Below, piece by piece: positions 1 to 13,764 of a DNA stretch of 13,764 bases. The notes under the pieces were generated by a model that had not been told where the DNA came from, did no database searches, and was given only the letters and a program-made list of their open reading frames with translations. The translations under genes were made by a program, and so were the position numbers. The stretch comes from a virus. Taxonomy: Duplodnaviria; Heunggongvirae; Uroviricota; Caudoviricetes. Every line of letters starts with the position of its first letter. The first letter of the stretch is position 1. The DNA lies in the IMG/VR virus record IMGVR_UViG_2541047849_000006; one strand, given 5' to 3'.

Positions 1-276
1 GTGGCTTCTGTTTCTATCAGCTGTCCCTCCTGTTCAGCTACTGACGGGGTGGTGCGTAACGGCAAAAGCACCGCCGGACATCAGCGCTATCTCTGCTCTC
101 ACTGCCGTAAAACATGGCAACTGCAGTTCACTTACACCGCTTCTCAACCCGGTACGCACCAGAAAATCATTGATATGGCCATGAATGGCGTTGGATGCCG
201 GGCAACTGCCCGCATTATGGGCGTTGGCCTCAACACGATTTTACGTCACTTAAAAAACTCAGGCCGCAGTCGGTAA
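1..276 (+). CDS. insA: IS1 transposase subunit InsA (91 aa)
   Basis: Protein [43 protein letters not shown]... recognised as IS1 InsA (zinc-finger/HTH protein). The first codon in the window is GTG. Confidence 0.9.
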
Positions 277-698
277 CCTCGCGCATACAGCCGGGCAGTG
301 ACGTCATCGTCTGCGCGGAAATGGACGAACAGTGGGGCTATGTCGGGGCTAAATCGCGCCAGCGCTGGCTGTTTTACGCGTATGACAGGCTCCGGAAGAC
401 GGTTGTTGCGCACGTATTCGGTGAACGCACTATGGCGACGCTGGGGCGTCTTATGAGCCTGCTGTCACCCTTTGACGTGGTGATATGGATGACGGATGGC
501 TGGCCGCTGTATGAATCCCGCCTGAAGGGAAAGCTGCACGTAATCAGCAAGCGATATACGCAGCGAATTGAGCGGCATAACCTGAATCTGAGGCAGCACC
601 TGGCACGGCTGGGACGGAAGTCGCTGTCGTTCTCAAAATCGGTGGAGCTGCATGACAAAGTCATCGGGCATTATCTGAACATAAAACACTATCAATAA
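195..698 (+). CDS. insB: IS1 InsB reading frame (167 aa), normally expressed as an InsAB' fusion by -1 frameshifting
   Basis: Protein ...[50 protein letters not shown]... recognised as IS1 InsB. It overlaps insA in the -1 frame, with the A6C slippery motif at 253-259. Confidence 0.88.
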
Positions 699-713
699 GT
701 TGGAGTCATTACC

Positions 714-946
714 GGGTTATCCAGTGCCATCGCGTAATTTAGCAGGCCTTCAATCGCAAACTGAGGGTCCTGAACACCAACTTTTGCCAGAAATAAGGCC
801 AACCCAAGTGGTGCTTTCGACTGCACCATCCCCTGCGCTGCCATTACATCCGTAATTGTTAAACAACCGGTGCCTGTCGCTGGAGCGTCATCGCTCAATT
901 TTGGAGATTTTGGGGAGTAATATTTTGGTAAGGCTTCAAGGTTCAT
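714..946 (-). pseudogene. quuQ: Lambda-Q-like late antiterminator, 5' fragment (~77 codons) truncated by the IS1 insertion
   Basis: From the ATG at 946..944 (SD 'ggagaa' 13 nt after the ydfU stop) the product MNLEALPKYYSPKSPKLSDDAPATGTGCLTITDVMAAQGMVQS... parallels the lambda Q N-terminus (..FHSPKSPMMSDSPRATASD..TDVMAAMGMAQSQ..) as recalled. The frame runs straight into IS1 and stops at 692. Confidence 0.7.
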
Positions 947-959
947 GCTCGTTCTCCAC

Positions 960-2009
960 TTACGCCAGTACGCCAATTGTCAGCGCGCGATCGATAAAAC
1001 GAAATATCAGCTCCAGTTGGGAGCCATACTTATCTTCAAATGCCACTGTATCCGTATGCAGCTCGTTGTGATGCTTTCTGCACAAAGGCAACACAAAGAG
1101 ATCATGTGCTTTTGTTCCCATTCCGCCCTGCCCGTGACCAATCAGATGATGCGGATCGTCGGCTGGCATACCGCAGCAAGCACACGGCTGTGTCTTAACC
1201 CAACGTGTGTATTTCTCCTTAACCCAGCGGCGACGTTTAGGCAGCTTCATGAAAGATTCCGGAGACTCTGGATCAACGGTGATGCTTACCACCGTCTTTT
1301 CCTGTGGTGATTTTTGTTGCTGGTGGGCGTAAGGCAACGGTGCAAGATTTTTTGTGCGTTGTTTCAATATGCTGGTGGCGGTCTGCTCTCCCGGTACGAT
1401 GTCGCTTTCGCGGTACACCGAGCAGATTTTTTCCGCTGGTAATCCCAGCGAACGACGCGATACAGCCTCAGGTAGTGCATCCACCACCTGATTGCAGACC
1501 GCCCACCAGGATAATTCAGCCAAAGATAATTCCCGCTCCTGCGTACCGCTTATTGCGTGACGGATGACGTCAATCACCCATGCTGTCAGATTTTGTTGAG
1601 CAAGCAGCTCCAGTGATTCCGATGTCTGGTCACGCAGTTGGTTGTCGCAGTGCCAGCACAACACCATTGCGCCGGTACCATAACGGTGAATGACTGTTTC
1701 AGTGTGATGGTAATCGCCATTAGGCCACTGGCAGGATGTAACATGACGTAATAGCCAGTCGGACAATGCGCCAACGCCGCCAGCAGCACGAATCACCCGT
1801 TCGTTACTAAAAAACGGCAGCAATGTTTTGTCTTCCGCCAGCGGCTGGCGAACGGCAGGAACGACTCCGGATGGCAGATTACGCATGCTTTTTGGTTCCG
1901 GTTCCACCAGCACTCGAGGATTATGAAATATCTGTATGGATTCACGGCCCGGCTTAAGGACCACCAGCCCAAGCTCAGGCACCAGAACAGGTCTAAGTAA
2001 TACCCGCAC
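960..2009 (-). CDS. ydfU: DUF968-family prophage protein with a C-terminal Cys/His (HNH-like) motif
   Basis: Long ORF; the C-terminal region carries CACCGMPADDPHHLIGHGQGGMGTKAHDLFVLPLCRKHHNELH. A GTG start at 2009 gives 349 aa, matching the length I recall for K-12 YdfU. The track ORF extends to 2048, and an ATG at 1886 is another possible start. Confidence 0.75.
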   Translation of the reverse strand: MRVLLRPVLVPELGLVVLKPGRESIQIFHNPRVLVEPEPKSMRNLPSGVVPAVRQPLAEDKTLLPFFSNERVIRAAGGVGALSDWLLRHVTSCQWPNGDYHHTETVIHRYGTGAMVLCWHCDNQLRDQTSESLELLAQQNLTAWVIDVIRHAISGTQERELSLAELSWWAVCNQVVDALPEAVSRRSLGLPAEKICSVYRESDIVPGEQTATSILKQRTKNLAPLPYAHQQQKSPQEKTVVSITVDPESPESFMKLPKRRRWVKEKYTRWVKTQPCACCGMPADDPHHLIGHGQGGMGTKAHDLFVLPLCRKHHNELHTDTVAFEDKYGSQLELIFRFIDRALTIGVLA

Positions 2010-2010
2010 G

Positions 2011-2289
2011 TTACCTCCAGATCCGTTGCTGGAAAGTGCGGGACGCACGTGGTGGGCGTTCGGAATAAGGCAGCCTGACAGAGATTATCCAGTGCCGATA
2101 GTCGAGACTGAGAGCTTTCTTAACCTCGAACCCGCGCCTGCGGTAAGAATGAATCAGCCATTCGGCCTGTTCTGCAGTGCATGGAGGGTGCTGGAACCAT
2201 TCAGACTTGAATGCGTGAGAATACCGCCCGTGCGTGCAGGCAAGAACGGGCGAATTATCAGAATTGTAATATTTTGCGTTGCGTGCCAT
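2011..2289 (-). CDS. Hypothetical prophage protein (92 aa), apparently translationally coupled to ydfU
   Basis: ATG at 2289 preceded by SD 'ggaga' at a 6-nt spacing; the TAA stop (2013..2011) is separated by 1 nt from the ydfU GTG at 2009. Product not recognised. Confidence 0.45.
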   Translation of the reverse strand: MARNAKYYNSDNSPVLACTHGRYSHAFKSEWFQHPPCTAEQAEWLIHSYRRRGFEVKKALSLDYRHWIISVRLPYSERPPRASRTFQQRIWR

Positions 2290-2355
2290 CGGTTTTCTCC
2301 GGTGGCACGGTGTTACTCAGCGGGAGTTCAGCCCCGCGCAAGATTGTAGATGAGT

Positions 2356-2607
2356 TTATTCTCCTGAAAAAGCAGAAAAGCCAGCTTTTATTCCGATCTC
2401 TTTCAATGCCTGTAATGAAGTGACAAACTCACCTTCGCGCAAGATAAATCCGTCCGTGACCCGAGCATCCACAAAATTAATTAACGCAGCCCCATTCTTT
2501 CGCAAACACATAATGCGGTAATGACTAACAAGATTTCCATTTTCAACGCACACAGCATAGAGGCCATCTTCACAAAAAATTTTACGCAGTTCTTCGATGT
2601 TCATCAT
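2356..2607 (-). CDS. rem: Small prophage protein Rem (83 aa), function unknown
   Basis: 83-aa ORF between ydfU and hokD, matching the K-12 Qin gene order (ydfU-rem-hokD-relE-relB) and Rem length as recalled. Confidence 0.65.
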   Translation of the reverse strand: MMNIEELRKIFCEDGLYAVCVENGNLVSHYRIMCLRKNGAALINFVDARVTDGFILREGEFVTSLQALKEIGIKAGFSAFSGE

Positions 2608-2719
2608 CAGAATCCTTCCGGATAATTAGCTCTCCCCTTTAAGGGACCATCCCTCTTATCCCTGCGCGCTACTTAAGTATTTTTGATTCTATTCCGGCAC
2701 CGTCCAGAACTTCAAACGC

Positions 2720-2755
2720 GTTGAAAATAAAAACAAAAACCCGCCGAAGCGGGTT
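2720..2755 (-). terminator. Rho-independent terminator of the relB-relE-hokD transcript
   Basis: On the minus strand: stem 'cccgc' / 'gcggg' (2740-2753) with a 4-nt loop, followed by a T-rich tract 'tttttgtttttatttt'. Confidence 0.7.
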
Positions 2756-2823
2756 AAGTGCGGGTGCGTTGAGGATGCCTGCCACATCAGAGGTGGCGAG
2801 GGATTTCTCCCCCGCCGGGTCTC

Positions 2824-2979
2824 TTACTCCTCAGGTTCGTAAGCTGTGAAGACAGCGACCTCCGTCTGGCCGGTTCGGATTCGTACCTCGCAGAGGTCTT
2901 TCCTCGTTACCAGTGCCGTCACTATGACGGTTAAACAGATGACGATCAGGGCGATTAACATCGCCTTTTGCTGCTTCAT
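2824..2979 (-). CDS. hokD: Hok-family type I membrane toxin (51 aa), not in the supplied ORF track
   Basis: Manual minus-strand translation gives MKQQKAMLIALIVICLTVIVTALVTRKDLCEVRIRTGQTEVAVFTAYEPEE, a Hok/Gef-family protein (single TM helix plus the conserved LCE.R..G..EVA.F motif). SD 'aggag' upstream; lies directly after relE, as hokD (relF) does. Confidence 0.85.
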   Translation of the reverse strand: MKQQKAMLIALIVICLTVIVTALVTRKDLCEVRIRTGQTEVAVFTAYEPEE

Positions 2980-3050
2980 AGCCTGCTTCTCCTGTCAACG
3001 CAAAGCAGAAGTGTCACCTTCGGTGCGAAACAGAGATGTCATGCTTTGGT

Positions 3051-3338
3051 TCAGAGAATGCGTTTGACCGCCTCGCTATATACTTCCGAGCGTTCTCTTT
3101 TCCCAACAGAAATCACGAAAACGACAACTTTCTCGTCTATAACCTGGTATACAAGGCGATAGCCTGAAGACCGGAGCTTAATCTTGTAACAATCAGGCAT
3201 ACCACGGAGCTTGTTTGCTTCAATCCGGGGTGACTCAAGTACTTCAACCAGCTTCTTTTTCAACTGTTCACGTACCGTCGAGCCCAGCTTTCGCCATTCC
3301 TTTAGTGCCCGCTCGTCAAAATCCAGAAAATACGCCAT
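3051..3338 (-). CDS. relE: RelE mRNA-interferase toxin (95 aa)
   Basis: Protein MAYFLDFDERALKEWRKLGSTVREQLKKKLVEVLESPRIEANKLRGMPDCYKIKLRSSGYRLVYQVIDEKVVVFVISVGKRERSEVYSEAVKRIL recognised as E. coli RelE. Its start overlaps the relB stop (ATGA). Confidence 0.93.
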   Translation of the reverse strand: MAYFLDFDERALKEWRKLGSTVREQLKKKLVEVLESPRIEANKLRGMPDCYKIKLRSSGYRLVYQVIDEKVVVFVISVGKRERSEVYSEAVKRIL

Positions 3339-3577
3339 CAGAGTTCATCCAGCGTCACACGTACTGGCTTAGGATTACGAAGCCGTTCTTTCACTATCTC
3401 CACAAGTTCAGCATCTTCATCACTCAGGAGTGTCTGTTTGAACGGCAAGCGTTCATTGTCAGCGATATACTCGAGCATGAGACGAAGCGCTTCAGAAGGA
3501 GTTACACCCATTTTTTCAAGCGCGGCGTAAGAACGCGCTTTAAGTTCATCGTCAATACGCAGGTTAATGCTACCCAT
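3338..3577 (-). CDS. relB: RelB antitoxin (79 aa)
   Basis: Protein MGSINLRIDDELKARSYAALEKMGVTPSEALRLMLEYIADNERLPFKQTLLSDEDAELVEIVKERLRNPKPVRVTLDEL recognised as E. coli RelB (ribbon-helix-helix antitoxin); SD 'gaggtg' upstream. Confidence 0.93.
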   Translation of the reverse strand: MGSINLRIDDELKARSYAALEKMGVTPSEALRLMLEYIADNERLPFKQTLLSDEDAELVEIVKERLRNPKPVRVTLDEL

Positions 3578-3588
3578 GTCTTACACCT

Positions 3589-3614
3589 CTTGTAATTACA
3601 AATGTCATTACAAG
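3589..3614 (-). promoter_or_regulatory. relBE operator: two adjacent 12-bp dyad-symmetric repeats just upstream of the relB SD
   Basis: Minus-strand 'ttgtaatgacat' + 'ttgtaattacaa' (the second is a perfect palindrome), 12 nt upstream of the relB ATG. Matches the relO hexad-repeat operator as recalled. Confidence 0.6.
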
Positions 3615-3907
3615 TATCGCACTACAACATGCTTAGGGCAAGTCACGAAGGAAGTCAGAAAGTAGTCGTAAGAACGGTGATCACTGTCCGCTTTGTGCCA
3701 GGAGCAGCCATTGCTAAGTCCATCCTGTATTGTGCAGGTCAGCTCGTTTTTAAAGAGTCCGGCCATCATCTTACTGGTACAGACACCATATACTTTGTGA
3801 CGGTCAGGCTACATATGCACAACTCAACTTATTCATCTATTTTTTGCTTTAGCATGTCAGTGTTGCTTTCTCGTCGGCGGGTGAGCGGTGACCTGACCTG
3901 TCGATAA
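3602..3907 (+). CDS. ydfV: ydfV-like ORF (101 aa); coding status doubtful
   Basis: ORF of the length and position I recall for K-12 ydfV, but the start sits inside the relBE operator and the product looks low-complexity. Retained only on positional grounds. Confidence 0.25.
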   Translation: MSLQVSHYNMLRASHEGSQKVVVRTVITVRFVPGAAIAKSILYCAGQLVFKESGHHLTGTDTIYFVTVRLHMHNSTYSSIFCFSMSVLLSRRRVSGDLTCR

Positions 3908-4059
3908 AGGAACGTAACACGTTTTATGCAACACCCGCATGCGGCAGAAAATTATTGCCGAACGTTTACCCCTGTCAACAAGCTTTACTTTCTGAGGCGC
4001 GCCAGCCCGCGAGGAAAACAATCTGAACATCAAACAATTAATGACACAAGAAATACGAT

Positions 4060-4086
4060 TAAAGATTTTTTTGTGCATGCCGATAG
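4060..4086 (+). promoter_or_regulatory. Sigma-28 (FliA) class promoter of flxA
   Basis: 'taaagatt' (4060-4067), an 11-nt spacer, then 'gccgatag' (4079-4086), against the consensus TAAAGTTT-N11-GCCGATAA. It is 24 nt upstream of the flxA ATG, which has SD 'aaaggag'. Confidence 0.7.
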
Positions 4087-4109
4087 TGCTTTTTTAAAAG
4101 GAGAAATCT

Positions 4110-4442
4110 ATGTCTGTCACAATTCAGGGAAATACCTCAACCGTTATTTCAAACAACTCCGCCCCGGAAGGAACATCAGAAATAGCCAAAATCACAAGAC
4201 AAATTCAGGTGCTGACTGAAAAGCTTGGGAAAATCTCATCGGAAGAGGGGATGACGACACAGCAGAAAAAAGAAATGGCTGCATTGGTACAGAAGCAAAT
4301 TGAAAGCCTCTGGGCTCAACTGGAGCAGTTGTTAAGGCAGCAGGCAGAGAAAAAGAATGAAGACGCGACAGTTCAGCCTGATAAAAAAGAAGAGAAAAAA
4401 GACGATACAAATACCGCTGGCACCATTGATATTTACGTCTAA
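4110..4442 (+). CDS. flxA: FlxA, FliA-regulated protein (110 aa)
   Basis: Protein MSVTIQGNTSTVISNNSAPEGTSEIAKITRQIQVLTEKLGKISSEEG... recognised as FlxA; strong SD; sigma-28 promoter upstream. Confidence 0.88.
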   Translation: MSVTIQGNTSTVISNNSAPEGTSEIAKITRQIQVLTEKLGKISSEEGMTTQQKKEMAALVQKQIESLWAQLEQLLRQQAEKKNEDATVQPDKKEEKKDDTNTAGTIDIYV

Positions 4443-4456
4443 GTGACAGCCGTATT

Positions 4457-4480
4457 GTGGCCCTCATCGGGCCACTTTTC
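4457..4480 (+). terminator. Rho-independent terminator downstream of flxA
   Basis: Stem 'gtggccc' (4457-4463), loop 'tcatc', 'gggccac' (4469-4475), then 'ttttc'. Confidence 0.65.
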
Positions 4481-4799
4481 GCCATCAGCCTTTTCTTTAA
4501 AGACATATTATCTTTGTATCATTTCTGATAGTTAACATTACAAGATATAAGTAATGGACGCACTCCCAATTAGTCTATTTAAATCGCCACGAGTTTAACT
4601 GACAACCCATGATCAATTATGAATTGCAACTATTTCTGTAGTCACTTTTGTGGGGACAGTCCACAAAACTGCCAACTTCCGCTTCTTGCTCTTAGCGGAC
4701 ATTAGCATAGGCTATTTACCATAACGCCTCATTACGCGCACCGCCCAGACTGACTCAGCGCGTTTCTGGCATATCCCCGGTAAAACAAGTAACAAACCA

Positions 4800-6260
4800 C
4801 CCGAAAATGAACACCAGAAACGCGACTTAAGAATCTACCCTATGAATGGATATGCACTCAACCGAATCGATCTTGGTTTCAATCTTTTTTATCGGGATCA
4901 GGCTTCTTTTTAGGTAACTTCGGGGGCTTAACTTGCTGATGACTTTGCGTTCGGCGCGTAAGCCAGGGATGGTCAGCTTTAGGTTTAACATAGTATTTTG
5001 AGCGTAAATCAATACGGGCATTATCCACTCGTTCATGGACACTCTTTTCATCATCCAGTGGTATAGGCTCCGGGCCATCAACATACTTTTCCCAGCCCAG
5101 CGCTTTCCCGTCATACAGAACGTTAATTTCACCGTCAAAGTTCTCGCATACAGTAACAACCGAATGCCTAAGTCGATATCCCCGGCCCTCACTGCGTACC
5201 TGAAACGCACTGCTTTTGTACTGGAAAGTGAGATTTTTAGACAGAACGCGCTTCGCCTGTAGGCTGAAGATATAACCCAGTTCCTCTTCAGAATGGTGCA
5301 CATCAAGATGAGCATTATCAGTAGTACGAGGCGACGTAGCGAACCGGTTGTTATAGGCTTCAATAAAGGTCGGCAACCATGCATTTGCTGTTTCAATATC
5401 ACTGATATTCTGAAGCCGCATTTCTTTGACCAGCCTGTCCTGTAGTGTCTGATTGGCGCGCTCTACCCGCCCTTTTGCCTGCGGGCTGTTGGCATGGATT
5501 GGCTCGATGCCCAGTGTCTTTATCGCACGAGTGAACTGGGTCAGCTCACCTTCCCGCTCTGGGTTATTTACCCTGAATATACTGTGTCTATCAGAGTAGA
5601 GAGCGAGCGGTACGCCATGATCATTAAGGTAACCCCGGAGGGTTTCCATGTAAGCCCGGGTTGTTTCAGCAGGCACAAAACGCAACGCCATCAACGCACT
5701 GGTGGCATCATCAATGAAAACGATCAGTGTACATCTGGGGCCTCGATTTTCAAACCAGTCATGAGGTGAGCCATCAATCTGGATCAGTTCACCGTAAGAT
5801 GGTCGTCGCATGCGGCGTTGATATATACGGGCAATTTTACGACGGCGTTCACGCCATAACCCCTCTTCTATCATCCACTTTCTGAGAGTTTCAACGGATA
5901 AAGATAAACCGTGTATCTCGCGCAATTTTTCGCACGCAAACGTAGGTCCAAAATCAGCGTAACGGCCTTTGAGGAGTGAAATTACTGTTGCTCTGAATTC
6001 AGTAGAAAAGGAATTATTAGGACGCTTTCCACGTCGGTGGGAAACCAGACCAGAAGGCCCTTCATTTCTATACCGTTGCACCAGACGTTTAACCTGCCGA
6101 ATAGAAATGCCAATGCGTGCCGCAGCTTGTTCCTGAATAATCTGAAGTCGGTGGAGTTCCTTATGACTCATCGTAACAGTCTCTTTGATCATGAAAAATC
6201 CCCCAGAGAATTGTCTGGGGACATTTTAGAATGGTTCAAAGGGGACATTACAGCTTGGTG
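4800..6260 (-). mobile_element. Insertion sequence carrying a single DDE/rve transposase gene; ends are approximate and terminal inverted repeats were not resolved
   Basis: A 437-aa transposase ORF with short flanks, sitting where K-12 Qin (as recalled) has no such gene. The boundaries are a guess from the ORF limits; I could not identify the IRs or a target-site duplication by eye. Confidence 0.35.
4879..6192 (-). CDS. DDE-type transposase with an N-terminal HTH and an rve (integrase-core) catalytic domain, IS481/ISNCY-like (437 aa)
   Basis: N-terminal HTH-like segment (..IGISIRQVKRLVQRY..); candidate catalytic residues in 'IQIDGSPHDWFE', 'LALYSDRHSIF' and 'ANSPQAKGRVERANQTLQDRL' (D, D, E with a downstream basic residue); basic C-terminal tail. 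SD 'ggggga' 8 nt upstream of the ATG at 6192. Confidence 0.85.
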   Translation of the reverse strand: MIKETVTMSHKELHRLQIIQEQAAARIGISIRQVKRLVQRYRNEGPSGLVSHRRGKRPNNSFSTEFRATVISLLKGRYADFGPTFACEKLREIHGLSLSVETLRKWMIEEGLWRERRRKIARIYQRRMRRPSYGELIQIDGSPHDWFENRGPRCTLIVFIDDATSALMALRFVPAETTRAYMETLRGYLNDHGVPLALYSDRHSIFRVNNPEREGELTQFTRAIKTLGIEPIHANSPQAKGRVERANQTLQDRLVKEMRLQNISDIETANAWLPTFIEAYNNRFATSPRTTDNAHLDVHHSEEELGYIFSLQAKRVLSKNLTFQYKSSAFQVRSEGRGYRLRHSVVTVCENFDGEINVLYDGKALGWEKYVDGPEPIPLDDEKSVHERVDNARIDLRSKYYVKPKADHPWLTRRTQSHQQVKPPKLPKKKPDPDKKD

Positions 6261-6526
6261 TTAACAATAGCCTGCTTCTCCGTGCCTTTCGGCACGTAAG
6301 AGGCTAACCTACATGTGTCTAGCATGAAATTGGCCTCAGATTAATGTTAAGCGTCTTGCAGGACGCGTAATGTTAACTGGGGCTTTTCTCTATCTGCCGT
6401 TGGTGTCCATGCCCGAGGCAGATAGCCTCAAGCACCCGCAGTCATTCTACTTAACTAAGATTTCCCCGCAAACCGTTTTTGTCCAGCACAGTAAATATCC
6501 AACTAAACCAATGGAGTTCGCTGTAT

Positions 6527-6706
6527 TTACCGCCAGTATTCAATGCACATGACCGCCATGAACACCCCTAAAAAAAGGGCATTTATATATCCAAATATTA
6601 ATATCAAAACATCAACTTTTTCCATATACCTTGCTGTGAAGATGATGGGCATACATGATGCGAACAACCAGAACGCAACAAACAAAAACTGCAATGCGTT
6701 TTTCAT
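6527..6706 (-). CDS. Small hydrophobic protein (59 aa, two predicted TM helices) with a consensus RBS; candidate moron or membrane toxin
   Basis: Minus strand 'tgtAGGAGGaataATG': an AGGAGG SD 5 nt upstream of the ATG at 6706. Product MKNALQFLFVAFWLFASCMPIIFTARYMEKVDVLILIFGYINALFLGVFMAVMCIEYWR. The track's longer 72-aa ORF uses an upstream GTG. Confidence 0.5.
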   Translation of the reverse strand: MKNALQFLFVAFWLFASCMPIIFTARYMEKVDVLILIFGYINALFLGVFMAVMCIEYWR

Positions 6707-6960
6707 TATTCCTCCTACAATCAATGTGCAATTACATTTAAACACACCTCAATTTGGCCGGACATATAAATATCTAAACCAGAAAAAATCACTTACATAG
6801 CGTTACAAACTCTTTAGTCTAAAGGTTCATCGTAAAACATTCCCCATACTTATCAGTCCGTTCCGCGCCAGGTAGCTCATTGCCTTATCTGGCAACCTGT
6901 AATCAGGTTTCCGCTTTTTCAGTTGGCTGGTCGTTTAACCGACATAGTTAATCCATTAAT

Positions 6961-7436
6961 CTAGTTGCCGGATGTTGGTGGATTTTCGCGTTTTAGTTGT
7001 TCATAAAAGTGCACAGCTTTAACCAGTTCTTCTGATGTAACTGGGACTGGTGAGGCAGTGAATAAGGCCTGAATTTGATAGTTCGGCCTGTCGTTACAAT
7101 CCTCTTTTTTCGGTACATATTTCCAGTCACCAGACCACTACTTCCCCTGAAAGTCCGTAACGCCTTTTTTCACGTAGCGATATCGCCATGCCACTGGTTT
7201 TGCTTGCCCCGCCGTTTCATGCCCTTCCTGATAATTAATCTCGCTCATTCATCGCCCCACTCATCACAATATGCTTCGACCGGAGTTTTTCCCGCTTCAT
7301 AGTCATCACGCTAGGATTCGACATCAGCAGCACTTCCACCGCGTAACTCACCATAGTCCATTAATAGTTCATCCCGCTCTTCAAAACTGATGTTATATTT
7401 AGCTGAACAAAAATCAGCCACTTTGTTCTTCCTCAT
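6961..7436 (-). pseudogene. Run of short collinear minus-strand ORFs interrupted by in-frame amber codons; probable decayed early gene(s)
   Basis: ORF A (ATG 7436) reads MRKNKVADFCSAKYNISFEERDELLMDYGELRGGSAADVES-TAG(7313..7311)-RDDYEAGKTPVEAYCDEWGDE-TGA. ORF B (ATG 7248, overlapping that TGA as ATGA) reads MSEINYQEGHETAGQAKPVAWRYRYVKKGVTDFQGK-TAG(7140..7138)-WSGDWKYVPKKEDCNDRPNYQIQALFTASPVPVTSEELVKAVHFYEQLKRENPPTSGN-TAG. Confidence 0.35.
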
Positions 7437-7858
7437 CGTCTTTTATTTCGTGGTATGAGTAATTGCAGTAGTTAAAGAAAATTTCTTATGCTCCGTCATG
7501 AATTTCCTCAGGTGTTGCGTCATCGTCCACTTCGAATACATCCTCAAAATCTCCACCAGCTATTCCCGTTTCAATAATAATTTTGAACTTTCGCATTTCA
7601 CTACCGCCCTTTCGGGCGGCCTCCTGATGTTCTGAGGGTGCAGAAATCCATCCGGTTAAGGATTAAATTTTATTTACAGAACTGAATTTAATTATTCAGA
7701 TATACGTATCTGTAGCCTTACGAATCTACTCACTGGATGCCTCTTTCATAAAAATAATCCAGTGGGTTTTATCGTTTTTTCCCTGTTCGTTGACAGATAA
7801 CAGGTTTTCTGTCTGTCAGTGCCAGAATCTGGCTTACCGGTATTTGCGTTTCATTCCA

Positions 7859-8215
7859 TTAAAAAATCAGAACGCCGTGCGGCCTCAACACCCGAAAGGC
7901 TTCTTTAAATCTCTGTCGCGAATCATCACGCCAGGCATCTTTATTCAGCCGTCCATATTTCTTTCCCATCCAGGCGTTATCACCAACACTCTCAAGATGC
8001 GGAGGGTCTAATACAACCATCGAAAAAGATGCGTCTGCAAATGATAATGCACGAAAATCTGCGATAATGTCAGGGCTGATAATCAAGCGTCTCCCATTGC
8101 GTAATGTGTATCCTTCTTTTCTGATATCGCTGAATATCGCCCGTTCGTCAGACTTATCGAACCAGAACATGCGGCTGCCACAGCACATATCAAGAATGGT
8201 TGCCGGTGCACTCAC
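7859..8215 (-). CDS. Small SAM-dependent DNA (N6-adenine/N4-cytosine-type) methyltransferase ORF (118 aa), possibly N-terminally incomplete
   Basis: Motif I-like 'LDMCCGS' (res 8-14) and motif IV 'DPPH' (res 70-73, nt 8008..7997) with RsmD/N6-MTase-like spacing. The start is a GTG at 8215 overlapping the upstream ORF's stop (GTGA); the first in-frame ATG is at residue 10. Confidence 0.6.
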   Translation of the reverse strand: MSAPATILDMCCGSRMFWFDKSDERAIFSDIRKEGYTLRNGRRLIISPDIIADFRALSFADASFSMVVLDPPHLESVGDNAWMGKKYGRLNKDAWRDDSRQRFKEAFRVLRPHGVLIF

Positions 8216-8586
8216 TGCGCCACGTCCTGAAAATTACCCTGATAGAAAGCCAGTATGCGCTGCATAACTTCGCTCTTCCGGCACTCGCGACAGATTATGT
8301 TTAGGCGACTGTCGTAGCGACGTATTTCTCCGTCAGGTGATGACCAGATAAGGTCCGGATCAACCACAGCAGGTTTCTTCACCTTTGCCCTCGAGAGTTT
8401 TTTGCGGGCGTTTTGCCAGTCCTTACGCGCCTGTTCAGAGGGGAATAACCCGTAGCCGGAGTTGTATACATCGCCACTGGCTACCAGCTCTCTGGCAAGA
8501 ACGCTCATCAGATATCTAGTCGCACCTGTTTTAGCTTCCAGTTGCCGTAACGTCTCACGGCCGCTCTGGCGCACGAGTTCCACCAC
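8212..8586 (-). CDS. Hypothetical early protein (124 aa from GTG); possibly the distal part of a ~140-codon gene interrupted by an amber codon
   Basis: The track ORF begins at a GTG immediately after an in-frame TAG (8589..8587). The same frame is open upstream to a GTG at 8634 with SD 'aaggggg' (MAKVFTQEEREKIKW-TAG-VVELVRQSGRETLRQLEAKTG...). Product not recognised. Confidence 0.4.
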   Translation of the reverse strand: MVELVRQSGRETLRQLEAKTGATRYLMSVLARELVASGDVYNSGYGLFPSEQARKDWQNARKKLSRAKVKKPAVVDPDLIWSSPDGEIRRYDSRLNIICRECRKSEVMQRILAFYQGNFQDVAQ

Positions 8587-8674
8587 CTACCATTTAATTT
8601 TTTCCCGCTCTTCTTGTGTAAAAACTTTTGCCACAAGTCCCCCTTAAAATTACCTCATGACCTGAAATCAACAC

Positions 8675-9202
8675 TTATCCTCTGAAACCAGGCGGAATTT
8701 CTGTATCCGGTTCAGAAATATGATTAACACAACGCTGTACAGGTGAACGTCCCAGGCGGATGACCAGTTCGTCCCATTTTTCGCGGAGCTTTGACGGGCT
8801 CATGATGTTTTTTACCCAGAATGGATCTCGCTGAACCCGACCAAACATTTCGCAAATTTGTCTGTGGCTTCTGCCATCCAGCATCCGCATTGTGCGCACG
8901 TCATTGGCCCAGGCAGTCCAGTTAGCCTCCATAATTGCAGGCACTAGCGCCGTGAACTTTTCACGCTTATCCCTGGTGTCGATAGCCTTCCAGCGTTCAA
9001 ATATCTTCACTCGATTAACGCCAAGCGCTCGCTGATCAATCGCGCCACCTTCATATGTGACACGCTGAACATCGATGTTCGGGCGCTCTTTCAAAGCCCA
9101 GAATGCTTCAGTGATTAATATCGTCGCCTGCTCCTGTGTCATTCCTGGTCGACATATCCAGGCATCCAGAGCCTCACGAGCCTGTTCAGGAGTGATTTTC
9201 AT
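8675..9202 (-). CDS. Hypothetical prophage early protein (175 aa), first gene downstream of dicC
   Basis: ATG start at 9202, overlapping the dicC 3' end by 17 nt. Product MKITPEQAREALDAWICRPGMTQEQATILITEAFWALKERPNIDV... not recognised. It occupies the position of the first post-Cro gene in lambdoid early-right operons. Confidence 0.6.
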   Translation of the reverse strand: MKITPEQAREALDAWICRPGMTQEQATILITEAFWALKERPNIDVQRVTYEGGAIDQRALGVNRVKIFERWKAIDTRDKREKFTALVPAIMEANWTAWANDVRTMRMLDGRSHRQICEMFGRVQRDPFWVKNIMSPSKLREKWDELVIRLGRSPVQRCVNHISEPDTEIPPGFRG

Positions 9203-9416
9203 TGTTCAACCGCCCCGCCCGCTTCGTCTTACGATATTCATCATAAACTTTGGGATCATACTGAAGCTCCCCGCCAGATGCCTCCTGTAGACGCATCGCG
9301 CGACCTTCGGGAACTAAATCCCCTTTCCAGCTATAAAGCGAAGCCAAACGAATACCTGCTGCTTGTGCAAGTTTTGTTTTTGAACCGAAATACAAAAGAG
9401 CGTCAGTTTTAAGCAT
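9186..9416 (-). CDS. dicC: DicC, Cro-like regulator of the Qin immunity region (76 aa)
   Basis: Protein MLKTDALLYFGSKTKLAQAAGIRLASLYSWKGDLVPEGRAMRLQEASGGELQYDPKVYDEYRKTKRAGRLNNENHS recognised as DicC; divergent from dicA; SD 'aaggtg' upstream. Confidence 0.85.
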   Translation of the reverse strand: MLKTDALLYFGSKTKLAQAAGIRLASLYSWKGDLVPEGRAMRLQEASGGELQYDPKVYDEYRKTKRAGRLNNENHS

Positions 9417-9430
9417 TTAAAACACCTTTA

Positions 9431-9450
9431 TTGTTAGTCATAACTAACAA
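9431..9450. promoter_or_regulatory. Operator-like 20-bp near-palindrome in the dicC/dicA intergenic region
   Basis: 'ttgttagtcataactaacaa', with half-sites TTAGT / ACTAA and one central mismatch. It overlaps the predicted dicC -10 and transcript start. Confidence 0.6.
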
Positions 9451-9477
9451 GATAGATGTTAACAAAAACATAGTCAA
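9449..9477 (-). promoter_or_regulatory. Candidate sigma-70 promoter of dicC
   Basis: Minus strand -35 'ttgact' (9477..9472), 17-nt spacer, -10 'tatctt' (9454..9449). Confidence 0.5.
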
Positions 9478-9483
9478 TACGAT

Positions 9484-9497
9484 TTAGCATTAGCTAA
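9484..9497. promoter_or_regulatory. Second operator-like site abutting the dicA start codon
   Basis: 'ttagcattagctaa': inverted half-sites TTAGC / GCTAA, ending 3 nt before the dicA ATG. dicA has no recognisable SD, so the transcript may be leaderless. Confidence 0.4.
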
Positions 9498-9499
9498 CT

Positions 9500-9907
9500 A
9501 TGGAAACAAAAAATTTAACTATCGGCGAACGCATCAGGTATCGTCGGAAAAACCTCAAACACACCCAAAGGTCTCTTGCTAAAGCCCTGAAAATCTCCCA
9601 TGTGTCTGTATCACAATGGGAACGGGGTGATAGTGAACCTACAGGGAAGAACCTTTTTGCCCTCAGCAAAGTATTGCAATGCTCACCAACATGGATTCTA
9701 TTTGGCGATGAAGACAAGCAACCAACACCACCTGTTGAGAAGCCAGTTGCCTTATCCCCCAAAGAACTAGAGCTCCTTGAGCTGTTTAATGCACTGCCAG
9801 AATCAGAACAGGATACCCAGCTCGCCGAAATGCGAGCTCGAGTAAAAAACTTCAATAAACTCTTTGAAGAATTACTAAAAGCCCGTCAGCGGACAAATAA
9901 AAGATAA
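9500..9907 (+). CDS. dicA: DicA, CI/C2-like HTH repressor (135 aa)
   Basis: Protein METKNLTIGERIRYRRKNLKHTQRSLAKALKISHVSVSQWERGDSEPTGKNLFALSKVLQCSPTWILFGDEDK... recognised as DicA (Xre-type HTH). Confidence 0.9.
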   Translation: METKNLTIGERIRYRRKNLKHTQRSLAKALKISHVSVSQWERGDSEPTGKNLFALSKVLQCSPTWILFGDEDKQPTPPVEKPVALSPKELELLELFNALPESEQDTQLAEMRARVKNFNKLFEELLKARQRTNKR

Positions 9908-9967
9908 CATCATCAATGAGTTATCTTTTACCACATCAATTATGTTAGCTATAGCATACAAAATCAC

Positions 9968-9996
9968 TTGACCGATATGTTAGTCATGACTAATCT
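9968..9996 (+). promoter_or_regulatory. Candidate promoter with an embedded perfect 14-bp palindromic operator (OL-like) upstream of the large exonuclease-domain ORF
   Basis: -35 'ttgacc' (9968-9973), 17-nt spacer, -10 'taatct' (9991-9996). The perfect palindrome 'ttagtcatgactaa' (9980-9993) has the same TTAGT/ACTAA half-sites as the dicC/dicA operator. Confidence 0.55.
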
Positions 9997-10079
9997 TGTT
10001 TGCATCAACACACCGCACGGTGTTCTCAGCAAACAGTTCCGCTATGGTTATTAGCGCACAGGAATTGTTGCAGGAAGAC

Positions 10080-12125
10080 ATGGCAACATTCGACGGACAT
10101 ATCGTTGAAGCGTTGATGAAAATGCCAGAAGTTAACGCCATGTATCCGGAGCTTAAGTTGCACGCCATTGGGTGGGTTAAGCATAAATGTATTCCTGGTG
10201 CTAAATGGCCCGAAATTCAGGCAGAGATGCGCATCTGGAAAAAACGTCGCGAAGGTGAACGCAAGGAAACCGGAAAATACACGTCTGTTGTTGATCTCGC
10301 CCGCGCCAGAGCCAATCAACAGTACACTGAAAATTCAACAGGAAAAATCAGCCCGGTCATTGCTGCCATTCATCGCGAATACAAGCAGACATGGAAAACA
10401 CTGGATGACGAACTGGCCTACGCTCTCTGGCCTAGTGATGTGGATGCCGGAAACATTGACGGCAGCATCCATCGCTGGGCAAAAAAAGAAGTTATCGACA
10501 ACGACCGCGAAGACTGGAAGCGTATCTCGGCATCAATGCGCAAACAGCCTGATGCCCTTCGCTACGACCGCCAAACTATTTTTGGCCTTGTCCGTGAGCG
10601 TCCGATCGACATTCACAAAGATCCCGTAGCACTGAACAAATATATCTGCGAATACCTGACGACAAAGGGCGTGTTTGAGAATGAAGAAACAGACCTGGGC
10701 ACTGTTGATGTTCTCCAGTCATCAGAAACACAAACTGATGCAGTGGAAACTGAGGTATCTGATATCCCAAAAAATGAAACCGCGCCGGAAGCTGAACCAT
10801 CTGTAGAGCGTGAGGGGCCGTTCTATTTCCTCTTCGCAGATAAGGACGGAGAAAAATACGGTCGCGCAAACAAACTCTCTGGTCTGGATAAGGCACTGGC
10901 TGCTGGCGCCACTGAAATCACAAAAGAAGAATATTTTGCCCGAAAAAATGGCACATACACGGGCTTACCGCAAAATGTAGATACCGCTGAAGATTCAGAA
11001 CAACCAGAGCCGATAAAAGTTACCGCTGACGAAGTAAACAAAATTATGCAGGCAGCCAATATCAGCCAGCCTGACGCCGATAAGTTGCTTGCTGCATCAC
11101 GTGGTGAATTTGTTGAAGGGATTAGTGACCCGAATGATCCGAAATGGGTTAAGGGGCTCCAGACCCGCGATTCTGTGAACCAGAACCAGCATGAATCGGA
11201 ACGGAACTACCAAAAAGCGGAACAAAACAGTCCAAATGCGTTACAAAACGAGCCAGAAACGAAACAGCCTGAACCAGTAGCGCAACAGGAAGTGGAAAAA
11301 GTCTGCACCGCCTGCGGTCAGACCGGCGGCGGCAACTGCCATGATTGTGGCGCGGTGATGGGCGACGCAACATACCAAGAAACATTCGATGAAGAGTATC
11401 AGGTTGAAGTTCAGGAAGATGATCCGGAGGAAATGGAAGGCGCTGAACATCCACACAAGGAGAACACTGGCGGCAATCAGCATCACAATAGCGATAATGA
11501 AACTGGCGAGACGGCAGATCACCCAATTAAGGTGAACGGTCATCACGAAATCACATCCACCAGCAGGACGTGTGACCATCTAATGATCGACCTTGAAACC
11601 ATGGGAAAAAATCCTGATGCCCCGATCATCTCAATAGGTGCAATATTTTTCGATCCGCAAACCGGAGATATGGGACCGGAATTTAGTAAGACTATCGATC
11701 TGGAAACTGCTGGCGGAGTCATTGATCGGGACACCATTAAATGGTGGCTTAAGCAATCACGCGAAGCGCAATCTGCCATTATGACCGATGAAATCCCGTT
11801 AGATGATGCACTGTTACAATTGCGAGAATTTATCGACGAAAACTCCGGTGAATTTTTTGTTCAGGTTTGGGGAAATGGAGCCAACTTCGACAACACGATT
11901 TTGCGCCGTTCATACGAACGGCAGGGGATCCCCTGCCCGTGGCGTTACTACAACGATCGCGATGTACGCACAATCGTTGAGCTGGGGAAAGCCATAGACT
12001 TCGATGCCAGAACGGCTATTCCATTCGAAGGTGAGCGCCATAATGCACTTGATGACGCCCGTTACCAGGCAAAATACGTTTCAGTTATCTGGCAAAAACT
12101 GATCCCGAGTCAGGCTGATTCTTAA
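10080..12125 (+). CDS. Large early-left protein: unknown N-terminal domain, acidic low-complexity linker, CxxC..CxxC zinc ribbon, and a C-terminal DnaQ-like (DEDDh) 3'-5' exonuclease domain
   Basis: The track ORF (9996..12125, 709 aa) starts at TTG; the ATG at 10080 with SD 'aggaag' gives 681 aa. Zinc ribbon 'CTACGQTGGGNCHDCG' at ~11304-11352. Exo motifs 'MIDLETMG' (D/E at 11589-11597), 'WGNGANFDNTIL' (D at 11889) and 'HNALDDARY' (H at 12039) place the exonuclease domain at ~11570-12100. Confidence 0.8.
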   Translation: MATFDGHIVEALMKMPEVNAMYPELKLHAIGWVKHKCIPGAKWPEIQAEMRIWKKRREGERKETGKYTSVVDLARARANQQYTENSTGKISPVIAAIHREYKQTWKTLDDELAYALWPSDVDAGNIDGSIHRWAKKEVIDNDREDWKRISASMRKQPDALRYDRQTIFGLVRERPIDIHKDPVALNKYICEYLTTKGVFENEETDLGTVDVLQSSETQTDAVETEVSDIPKNETAPEAEPSVEREGPFYFLFADKDGEKYGRANKLSGLDKALAAGATEITKEEYFARKNGTYTGLPQNVDTAEDSEQPEPIKVTADEVNKIMQAANISQPDADKLLAASRGEFVEGISDPNDPKWVKGLQTRDSVNQNQHESERNYQKAEQNSPNALQNEPETKQPEPVAQQEVEKVCTACGQTGGGNCHDCGAVMGDATYQETFDEEYQVEVQEDDPEEMEGAEHPHKENTGGNQHHNSDNETGETADHPIKVNGHHEITSTSRTCDHLMIDLETMGKNPDAPIISIGAIFFDPQTGDMGPEFSKTIDLETAGGVIDRDTIKWWLKQSREAQSAIMTDEIPLDDALLQLREFIDENSGEFFVQVWGNGANFDNTILRRSYERQGIPCPWRYYNDRDVRTIVELGKAIDFDARTAIPFEGERHNALDDARYQAKYVSVIWQKLIPSQADS

Positions 12126-12197: not shown

Positions 12198-12449
12198 ATG
12201 AGCGAAGTAATCATGATTGTCTCTCCCGGCAAATGGGTATCCGAAGAGCAGTTAATTGCGCTGAAAGGAATAAAAAAAGGTACGTTAAAAAAGGCCCGGG
12301 AAAAATCGTTTATGGAAGGAAGGGAATATAAGCATGTCGCTCATGACGGTATGCCATGGGATAACAGTCCATGCTTTTACAACCTGGAAGAAATTGATCG
12401 CTGGATTGAGCGCCAGGCATCAGCGAGACCAAGACGTCATCTTACTTGA
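12198..12449 (+). CDS. xis: Excisionase (lambda Xis-like, 83 aa)
   Basis: Small basic protein immediately upstream of the integrase; '..EGREYKHV..' resembles the lambda Xis '..DGREYLFHE..' motif. The start is not certain (alternative ATG at 12213). Confidence 0.65.
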   Translation: MSEVIMIVSPGKWVSEEQLIALKGIKKGTLKKAREKSFMEGREYKHVAHDGMPWDNSPCFYNLEEIDRWIERQASARPRRHLT

Positions 12450-12483
12450 CTAAAAGCCACACTAACTAATGAGAGAAGTTGAA

Positions 12484-13764
12484 ATGAAATATCCGACAGG
12501 CGTGGAAAACCATGGAGGGAAATTACGTATCTGGTTTGTTTATAAAGACGTAAGAGTCAGGGAAAATCTGGGGGTTCCTGACACAGCAAAAAACAGGCGC
12601 GTTGCAGGTGAACTACGCTCCTCTGTTTGTTACGCAATAAAAACTGGTGTTTTCGACTATGCAAAACAGTTTCCCTCCTCACGCAATCTGGAAAAATTTG
12701 GTGAGGCCCGACAAGATTTAACCATAAAAGAACTGGCTGAAAAATTTCTGGCACTGAAAGAAACTGAAGTCGCAAAAACATCACTCAACACATACCGTGC
12801 CGTCATCAAAAATATCCTGAGCATAATCGGTGAAAAAAATCTTGCCTCATCGATTAATAAAGAAAAATTACTGGAGGTTCGTAAAGAGTTACTGACTGGA
12901 TACCAGATCCCCAAAAGTAACTATATTGTTACACAACCAGGGAGATCGGCTGTAACTGTAATTAATTACATGACAAATCTTAACGCCGTGTTCCAGTTTG
13001 GTGTTGATAACGGTTACCTGGCAGATAATCCGTTTAAGGGGATCTCGCCATTAAAGGAATCAAGAACCATTCCGGATCCTCTTTCGCGGGAAGAATTTAT
13101 CCGTCTTATCGATGCGTGCAGAAATCAGCAAGCAAAAAATTTATGGTGTGTTTCTGTTTATACTGGCGTTCGCCCTGGTGAGCTGTGTGCACTTGGATGG
13201 GAGGACATAGATCTGAAAAATGGAACAATGATGATCAGGAGAAATTTAGCAAAAGACCGTTTCACGGTACCAAAAACACAGGCGGGAACCAATCGGGTCA
13301 TTCATCTTATTAAGCCAGCAATCGACGCTCTCCGGAGTCAGATGACATTAACGAGACTGAGCAAAGAGCATATCATTGATGTTCACCTCAGAGAGTATGG
13401 CAGAACAGAAAAACAAAAATGCACCTTTGTTTTTCAACCTGAAGTGTCAGCGAGAGTAAAAAATTATGGTGACCATTTTACCGTTGACTCAATAAGGCAG
13501 ATGTGGGACGCAGCGATAAAACGTGCCGGACTCCGCCATCGAAAATCATATCAGTCGAGACATACTTATGCCTGCTGGTCGCTGACAGCTGGTGCTAACC
13601 CGGCATTTATAGCAAACCAGATGGGCCATGCAGATGCGCAAATGGTATTTCAGGTATACGGAAAATGGATGTCTGAAAACAATAATGCACAGGTAGCTTT
13701 GTTAAATACACAGTTAAGCGAGTTTGCCCCAACCATGCCCCATAACGAAGCAATGAAAAATTAA
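12484..13764 (+). CDS. int: Tyrosine recombinase / phage integrase (lambda Int family)
   Basis: C-terminal catalytic signature '..RHRKSYQSRHTYACWSLTAGANPAFIANQMGHADAQMVFQVYGKW' (R, H-x-x-R-H, nucleophile Y). Probable start at MKYPTG (12484, SD 'gagaag'); the track ORF starts at 12469. The stop codon is the last triplet of the window. Confidence 0.9.
   Translation: MKYPTGVENHGGKLRIWFVYKDVRVRENLGVPDTAKNRRVAGELRSSVCYAIKTGVFDYAKQFPSSRNLEKFGEARQDLTIKELAEKFLALKETEVAKTSLNTYRAVIKNILSIIGEKNLASSINKEKLLEVRKELLTGYQIPKSNYIVTQPGRSAVTVINYMTNLNAVFQFGVDNGYLADNPFKGISPLKESRTIPDPLSREEFIRLIDACRNQQAKNLWCVSVYTGVRPGELCALGWEDIDLKNGTMMIRRNLAKDRFTVPKTQAGTNRVIHLIKPAIDALRSQMTLTRLSKEHIIDVHLREYGRTEKQKCTFVFQPEVSARVKNYGDHFTVDSIRQMWDAAIKRAGLRHRKSYQSRHTYACWSLTAGANPAFIANQMGHADAQMVFQVYGKWMSENNNAQVALLNTQLSEFAPTMPHNEAMKN

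Follow-up and report, generated by a model that had tools for sequence, protein, structure and literature searches.

IS1 at the joint of a probable deletion that truncates the Q-type antiterminator gene of prophage Qin in Escherichia coli KOEGE 7 (16a)

The antiterminator Q of phage lambda has an intrinsically disordered N-terminal segment (residues 1–60), a body with a helix-turn-helix (HTH; residues 61–113 and 153–207) and a zinc-ribbon arm (residues 114–152) (PMC9388147). Residues 1–44 form a torus in the RNA-exit channel only once NusA is bound (PMC9388147). A gene of this type, ydfT (quuQ), is part of the element annotated as 'cryptic prophage Qin' in E. coli K-12; there, ydfT is intact, intQ is disrupted, and genes for head and tail are absent. 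The Qin of strain NCTC9008 contains intact Q, int and xis genes together with a lysis cassette and has no morphogenesis genes. In the literature Qin is regarded as defective, and its genes are investigated for their effects on host phenotypes (PMC3105296, bioRxiv 10.1101/708461, PMC12529663). Of 5,426 complete genomes, 2,419 contained at least 80 % of ydfT, a count that would also include IS-interrupted copies. Insertion sequence IS1 expresses its InsAB' transposase by a –1 frameshift at an A6C motif. IS1 is classically known to form adjacent deletions, a behaviour first seen in the gal region.

The DNA analysed here, hereafter the window, is a stretch of 13,764 nucleotides. Its positions 1–10255 agreed exactly with the reverse complement of scaffold KE701198.1 from E. 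coli KOEGE 7 (16a) (GCA_000459575.1; locus L003, 692–10946). The DNA past the left edge of the window was read from KE701198.1 as well, a scaffold-level short-read assembly and the sole source for the far flank of the IS1; across the 20-kb locus L003 the number of N was 0. Reference loci were taken from MG1655 (L009) and NCTC9008 (L005). The window presented the Qin gene order ydfU-rem-hokD-relEB-ydfV-flxA...dicC-dicA...xis-int with 99.9 % identity to the Qin of both references over the common segments. In the references, int adjoins rspB and the end that is deleted in KOEGE 7 lies in ydfJ; the rspB side of KOEGE 7 is beyond the analysed DNA. We propose, with a probability of about 0.88, that the IS1 at the left edge of the window is the single copy marking the joint that an IS1-associated deletion left in the Qin of KOEGE 7 (16a).

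The IS1 copy and the truncated Q gene

The window started at the GTG of insA, which is nt 56 of IS1, and the sequence of the element, ...AAGTTGGAGTCATTACC, terminated at position 713, where the right terminal repeat finishes with ...GGAGTCATTACC (Table 1). The scaffold of KOEGE 7 contained the full element of 768 bp (L003 10234–11001) with two imperfect terminal inverted repeats of ~23 bp (GGTGATGCTGCCAACTTACTGAT / GGTAATGACTCCAACTTATTGAT), and a single nucleotide mismatch was observed to the IS1A copies in three other genomes (L001, L002, L006). The insA and insB frames were both there, the A6C –1 frameshift motif TTAAAAAAC was intact at window positions 250–258, and identical copies are labelled 'IS1A family transposase, programmed frameshift' in RefSeq. 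A 9-bp direct target-site duplication was absent around the KOEGE 7 copy: the flanks GGATAACCC on the Q side and TCGGCGGCG on the ydfI side are unrelated. On the plus strand of the window the 9-mer beside the IS1 at the Q site reads GGGTTATCC. The missing duplication is expected of a deletion derivative and is no argument against the identity as IS1.

Table 1. Features at the left end of the window, in window coordinates
Feature	Position	Strand	Remarks
IS1 (IS1A-type)	1..713	+	nt 56–768 of the 768-bp element; nt 1–55 with the left inverted repeat just outside the window
insA (91 aa, GTG start)	1..276	+	intact; Pfam Zn_ribbon_InsA / HTH_Tnp_IS1
insB reading frame	195..698	+	intact
IS1 right terminal inverted repeat	691..713	+	reverse complement GGTAATGACTCCAACTTATTGAT
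Fusion ORF, 84 aa	692..946	-	78 residues of Q followed by the IS1-encoded VMTPTY; stop at 692
IS1/ydfT joint (probable deletion joint)	713..714	.	1-nt ambiguity: base 713 fits IS1 and ydfT alike
ydfT/quuQ 5' remnant, lambda-Q-type antiterminator	714..946	-	233 nt, codons 1–77 plus 2 nt
ydfU (DUF968, 349 aa)	960..2009	-	directly upstream of Q in Qin; synteny anchor

The Q frame begins on the minus strand with the ATG at 946 (MNLEALPKYYSPKSPKLSDD..., MNLEALPKYY...), which is preceded by a GGAG Shine-Dalgarno sequence and located 14 nt downstream of the ydfU stop. Codon 78 (CCG, Pro) is completed by the terminal G of IS1 at 713. A reading made from the window alone (the sequence-only reading) had described a Q-like ORF of ~77 codons from 946 into the right end of IS1 at 713; the coordinates and the codon count were correct, and the C-terminal two-thirds of Q, given there as missing or displaced, proved to be missing at this locus, where the last 172 of the 250 codons (codons 79–250) are gone. 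Its call for a comparison with quuQ of K-12 was followed: the 78 retained residues were identical (78/78) to YdfT of K-12 and also to YdfT of NCTC9008 (250 aa each). The assignment to the lambda-Q type held up in alignments, with matches to PDB 7UBM and to the Pfam family PF03589 'Antitermination protein Q' (1.4e-12 for the 84-aa product and 2.9e-53 for the full-length NCTC9008 YdfT of 250 aa, which carries a DnaJ-type CxxCxGxG stretch). Full-length YdfT matched lambda Q (PDB 7UBM/7UBN) with E = 5.3e-36 in two alignment blocks covering both termini; judged by these alignments, YdfT is a genuine lambda-Q homologue, and a chance resemblance is excluded. The fusion ORF has been deposited as 'hypothetical protein G879_01531 [Escherichia coli KOEGE 7 (16a)]' (ERB08062.1). 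An exact-sequence look-up revealed as second source of the 84-aa protein a Logan contig that ends within IS1.

In the alignment, residue 78 of YdfT corresponded to about residue 80 of lambda Q. Besides the disordered N-terminal segment, the fragment in KOEGE 7 contains ~20 residues of the body; HTH, zinc-ribbon arm and C-terminal helix are all missing. It shares the homology to lambda Q with the members of PF03589 but not the four-helix HTH body and the zinc-ribbon arm, and by this domain content it has to be seen as a pseudogene remnant of a family member, not as a functional member. Since the elements binding the Q-binding element (QBE), sigma region 4 and the zinc-binding domain of RNA polymerase are lacking, the 84-aa product is predicted to be dead as an antiterminator and presumably cannot function in this role. 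An activity of its own, if it is expressed, as interference with related Q proteins of superinfecting lambdoid phages or as contact to RNA polymerase or NusA, is extremely unlikely. The thought derives from the complete N-terminal torus segment, the equivalent of lambda Q residues 1–44, which is kept and might act alone; torus formation by lambda Q needs the body docked on RNA polymerase along with NusA (PMC9388147). If true, a small peptide with a regulatory or anti-phage role would have arisen by the truncation.

The far side of the IS1 and the origin of the joint

On its far side the IS1 of KOEGE 7 is followed by TCGGCGGCGAACAGCAAATTGCC..., the chromosomal gene ydfI from nt 179. Nucleotides 1–178 of ydfI are lost, hence the first 59 codons including the dinucleotide-binding motif GFGAFHRAH. 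The rest of Q was not found past the IS1 in the KOEGE 7 scaffold beyond the left edge of the window. In comparison to MG1655, 12,272 bp were missing between the two flanks (1,630,736–1,643,007; break points L009 4736/17009), in comparison to NCTC9008 10,400 bp (break points L005 1600/12000). The flanks of the IS1 were collinear and had the same orientation as in MG1655 and NCTC9008, thus a deletion fits and an inversion does not. In terms of K-12, the missing edge between prophage and chromosome comprises the ydfJ' fragment and the left end of Qin with its junction, and the missing genes are ynfT, ydfK, pinQ, tfaQ, stfQ, nohA, ynfO, ydfO, gnsB, ynfN, ynfR, ynfQ, cspI, rzpQ/rzoQ, rrrQ, ydfR, essQ, ynfU, cspB, cspF and ynfS. 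These include the lysis cassette, the csp/gnsB/pinQ cargo and the tail-fibre and pinQ remnants. A putative late promoter/qut site downstream of Q would have been lost with the deletion, wherever it was located. The locus presented the features of an IS-mediated deletion: a single IS at the joint, flanks that are collinear yet non-adjacent in relatives, and no target duplication.

Several histories were weighed for this joint. In one event, a resident IS1 at one of the two sites would attack the other site on the same molecule by replicative intramolecular transposition; the intervening DNA would be removed and one IS1 would remain without a target duplication. Alternatively, two IS1 copies in direct orientation may have inserted into ydfT and ydfI, followed by a RecA-dependent homologous recombination between the copies, a history that we regard as possible but doubtful. 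Recombination between two IS1 copies yields one IS1, possibly chimeric, with half of each target duplication per side, and the end product with its non-matching flanks would be identical for both histories. Prior insertions are in line with the observation that both sites lie in stretches repeatedly hit by IS1, as is evident from three ends in ydfI within 25 bp and in one orientation and from IS1 copies inside or beside the Q gene of other genomes. However, an IS1 at either exact site was present in none of the 5,426 complete E. coli genomes and GTDB representatives, and two rare insertions plus a recombination are a high cost compared to one event. A precursor, an IS1 at one end point together with its target duplication, was likewise not detected in the 5,426 complete E. 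coli genomes or the GTDB representatives. Since no precursor state was found, the two histories could not be told apart, and the single transposition event is considered the most likely on parsimony only. The target-sequence preference of IS1 would be of no help in deciding at which end the element had first inserted.

The sequence-only reading had seen a simple insertion of IS1 that splits an otherwise complete Q gene; the remainder of Q and the 9-bp duplication would lie past the left edge, and the cryptic state of the prophage would go back to the loss of Q. This is compatible with the window alone, and the nearby ydfI of strain MB52 indeed has an IS1 with a duplication. The read past the left edge revealed neither a target-site duplication nor a remainder of Q: the flanks are unmatched, an intact Q frame resuming past the IS1 was looked for and is absent, and the 5'-truncated ydfI from nt 179 takes the place of ydfT from codon 78 onward. 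Moreover, Qin is cryptic already with an intact Q, and a simple insertion has become very improbable. Somewhat different is the concern that ydfT and ydfI each carry an IS1 copy, with 12 kb between them, and that these copies were collapsed as a repeat by the short-read assembler and their outer flanks joined. IS1 is a multi-copy repeat of 768 bp with a median of ~10–12 matching places per E. coli genome, the record is at scaffold level, and the Logan contig, an independent source, breaks off at this element. Against such an artefact, the IS1 was sequenced throughout (N = 0 in L003), the flanks are collinear across it, and similar IS1-bounded deletions occur at the Qin locus in finished long-read genomes; the truncated Q abutting the IS1 would hold regardless. 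We consider the artefact quite improbable.

This pair of break points was observed in 2 NCBI samples and 6 Logan samples and appears to be specific to the strain KOEGE 7 or its lineage. A scan of genome contigs with the exact 38-nt junction yielded 0 matches. In megablast searches of the 5,426 complete E. coli genomes, the exact junction was found in 0 genomes with a 151-nt probe for the IS1/Q joint and in 0 genomes with a 156-nt probe for the IS1/ydfI joint. Matches that covered at least 80 % of the ydfI-joint probe were rejected as two-piece matches or as gapped matches at neighbouring positions. Fifteen genomes covered at least 80 % of window positions 1–1500; in the five that were inspected, the IS1 was near ydfT or ydfU but at another site.

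The Qin remnant in KOEGE 7

The remnant of Qin in KOEGE 7 contains ydfU, rem, hokD, relBE, flxA, dicC, dicA, xis and int. The late genes which Q would activate are themselves deleted. Since Qin is cryptic in K-12 with an intact Q and ydfT is common in genomes, the loss of Q is not the cause of the defect. The opposite had been claimed in the sequence-only reading, that the loss of Q locks the prophage as cryptic; it is contradicted by K-12 and also by NCTC9008, where an intact Q coexists with the absence of morphogenesis genes. We infer that the deletion in KOEGE 7 is late-stage reductive erosion of an already defective element rather than the step that made it cryptic. The term domestication was too generous, as cargo genes for which host roles have been reported or proposed (cspB/F/I, gnsB, pinQ) have been removed and the host gene ydfI has been inactivated. 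The loss of the holin-endolysin cassette could be mildly advantageous. The toxin-antitoxin modules and early genes, thought to be intact, are so for relBE, hokD, dicA and dicC, whereas the dicB operon (ydfA–ydfD, dicF) and a gene of the replication region are deleted. Because one of the prophage-chromosome junctions is deleted, the intact xis and int cannot excise the remnant according to the standard Int/Xis model, and the remnant is presumably no longer excisable. The excisionase (83 aa) and the integrase (431-aa ORF) are located at window positions 12198–13764; the intQ of K-12, interrupted by IS2, is a pseudogene.

Further rearrangements were observed in the window. The joint at 10043–10044 represents a deletion of 1,988 bp relative to NCTC9008, is the same relative to K-12 and has ~2 nt of microhomology. 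This deletion took ydfA, ydfB, ydfC, dicF, dicB and ydfD together with 389 nt at the start of the exonuclease gene, and a 709-aa ORF with a TTG start (9996–12125) directly follows dicA at this site. Rfam detected no DicF in the window; with this result and the deletion at 10043–10044, KOEGE 7 is without the cell-division inhibitors DicB and DicF of Qin. At window positions 8917–8929, 927 bp are deleted relative to NCTC9008 (L005 20217–21143) across the short imperfect repeat TAG[G/C]CTC. The ORF at 8675–9202 on the minus strand encodes a chimera of 175 aa, in which the N-terminal part of a YdaT-family protein is fused in frame to the C-terminal part of the neighbouring hypothetical gene of 321 aa.

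The segment 5064–8916 is not part of the Qin in K-12 and is present in the NCTC9008-type Qin. It contains the full-length gene for a 437-aa ISNCY-family transposase, a 72-aa membrane ORF, a SAM-methyltransferase gene and a DUF977 gene; ydfW of K-12 appears to be the tail end of this transposase gene. Just upstream of the ISNCY-family transposase gene (4879–6192, minus strand), Rfam identified a full-length sok antitoxin RNA (RF01794, 104 bits) at 6266–6437 on the minus strand. No Hok-like ORF was present beside it in any frame of 5900–6900, and the annotated hokD (2824–2979) was without a sok match. The sok match may be an orphan or part of a hok/sok locus disrupted by the IS.

IS1 joints and Q decay in other genomes and comparison with known systems

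In finished genomes, IS1 copies were found at several other positions in and around Qin. Strain MB52 has no Qin, the empty Qin site is present, and a simple IS1 insertion in ydfI with the 9-bp duplication TACAACAGC on both sides, 21 bp from the KOEGE 7 end point, served as control. In EC291 the whole Qin is deleted, with the order rspB'-IS1-ydfI' and the ydfI end 14 bp from that of KOEGE 7. Further arrangements were rzpQ-IS1-ydfI in E41, gnsB'-IS1 at 222 bp from ydfT in LR-03, and cspI-IS1-cspF' in MB53. Altogether three independent IS1 ends lie in ydfI at nt ~179–200, within 25 bp and in the same orientation (L003 11002, L006 4078, L007 4078). The three strains are unrelated, and the events differ in kind: one end marks a deletion joint, one a simple insertion flanked by a duplication, and one the loss of the entire prophage. 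Near its 5' end, ydfI looks like a local target hot spot of IS1.

The Q gene has decayed in other ways, too. In LR-29-1 (L015 1–3402), two inverted IS1A copies split, at the equivalent position of the prophage, a gene annotated as 'antiterminator Q family protein'. The segment between the copies, with the C-terminal Q fragment, a lipocalin gene and ybgA, is inverted, and the N-terminal Q fragment stays beside ydfU. In UMEA 3240-1 (L010 8001–8752) and in L011 and L012, including metagenome contigs, a frameshift at codon 82 splits ydfT into ORFs of 82 aa and 168 aa; the frameshifted ydfT of UMEA 3240-1 has retained the late region and is without an IS. Many deposited partial proteins end at Q codons 78–82. 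An IS hot spot at these codons was considered as an explanation and rejected, since the 82-aa form of UMEA 3240-1 is due to the frameshift; the remaining partial proteins are contig-end partials. Repeated decay of Q in Qin is expected of a gene without a function to maintain.

The components of the KOEGE 7 locus, IS1A, ydfT/quuQ and Qin, as well as the type of event are already known; it is a textbook kind of event, and the loss of Q in KOEGE 7 is ordinary strain-level genome decay. Outside annotation the significance is slight. 'Hypothetical protein G879_01531' should be relabelled as a pseudogene fragment of ydfT with an IS1 end fused to it, and the neighbouring 406-aa 'mannitol dehydrogenase' as the 5'-truncated ydfI. 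Users of KOEGE 7 have to consider the absence of the Qin genes cspB, cspF, cspI, gnsB, pinQ, essQ/rrrQ/rzpQ and dicB/dicF. The locus is a clean example of IS1 eroding Qin plus an adjacent host gene, with several independent IS1 joints within a few kilobases. It also demonstrates that one IS end alone can mislead, being read as an insertion where the event is a deletion.

In comparison to ydfT (b1559) of K-12 MG1655, the KOEGE 7 locus shares the first 78 residues and the order ydfU-rem-hokD-relE-relB-ydfV-flxA at 99.95 % DNA identity over 4.35 kb. K-12 continues to the full 250 aa with the late and lysis region downstream, whereas KOEGE 7 stops at codon 78 and misses 12.3 kb. Lambda Q (7UBM/7UBN, 4MO1; PF03589) aligns end to end with full-length YdfT, and the alignment takes in the N-terminal segment as well as the CxxC zinc motifs; the fragment in the window is the equivalent of only residues ~1–80, and the antitermination role of YdfT itself is predicted by homology. 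With the adjacent deletions of IS1 the locus has in common the single IS1 at the joint, the collinear flanks and the lack of a duplication, the mechanism in KOEGE 7 being deduced from the end product only. EC291, E41, LR-03, MB53 and LR-29-1 also present IS1A-type copies at joints in or beside Qin; their break points differ, and none of them has either of the KOEGE 7 junctions. In LR-29-1, IS1 splits Q beside ydfU as in KOEGE 7, but in the form of an inversion and in a differently annotated Q gene. In UMEA 3240-1, the same Q gene has been inactivated independently at codon 82, four codons from the break in KOEGE 7.
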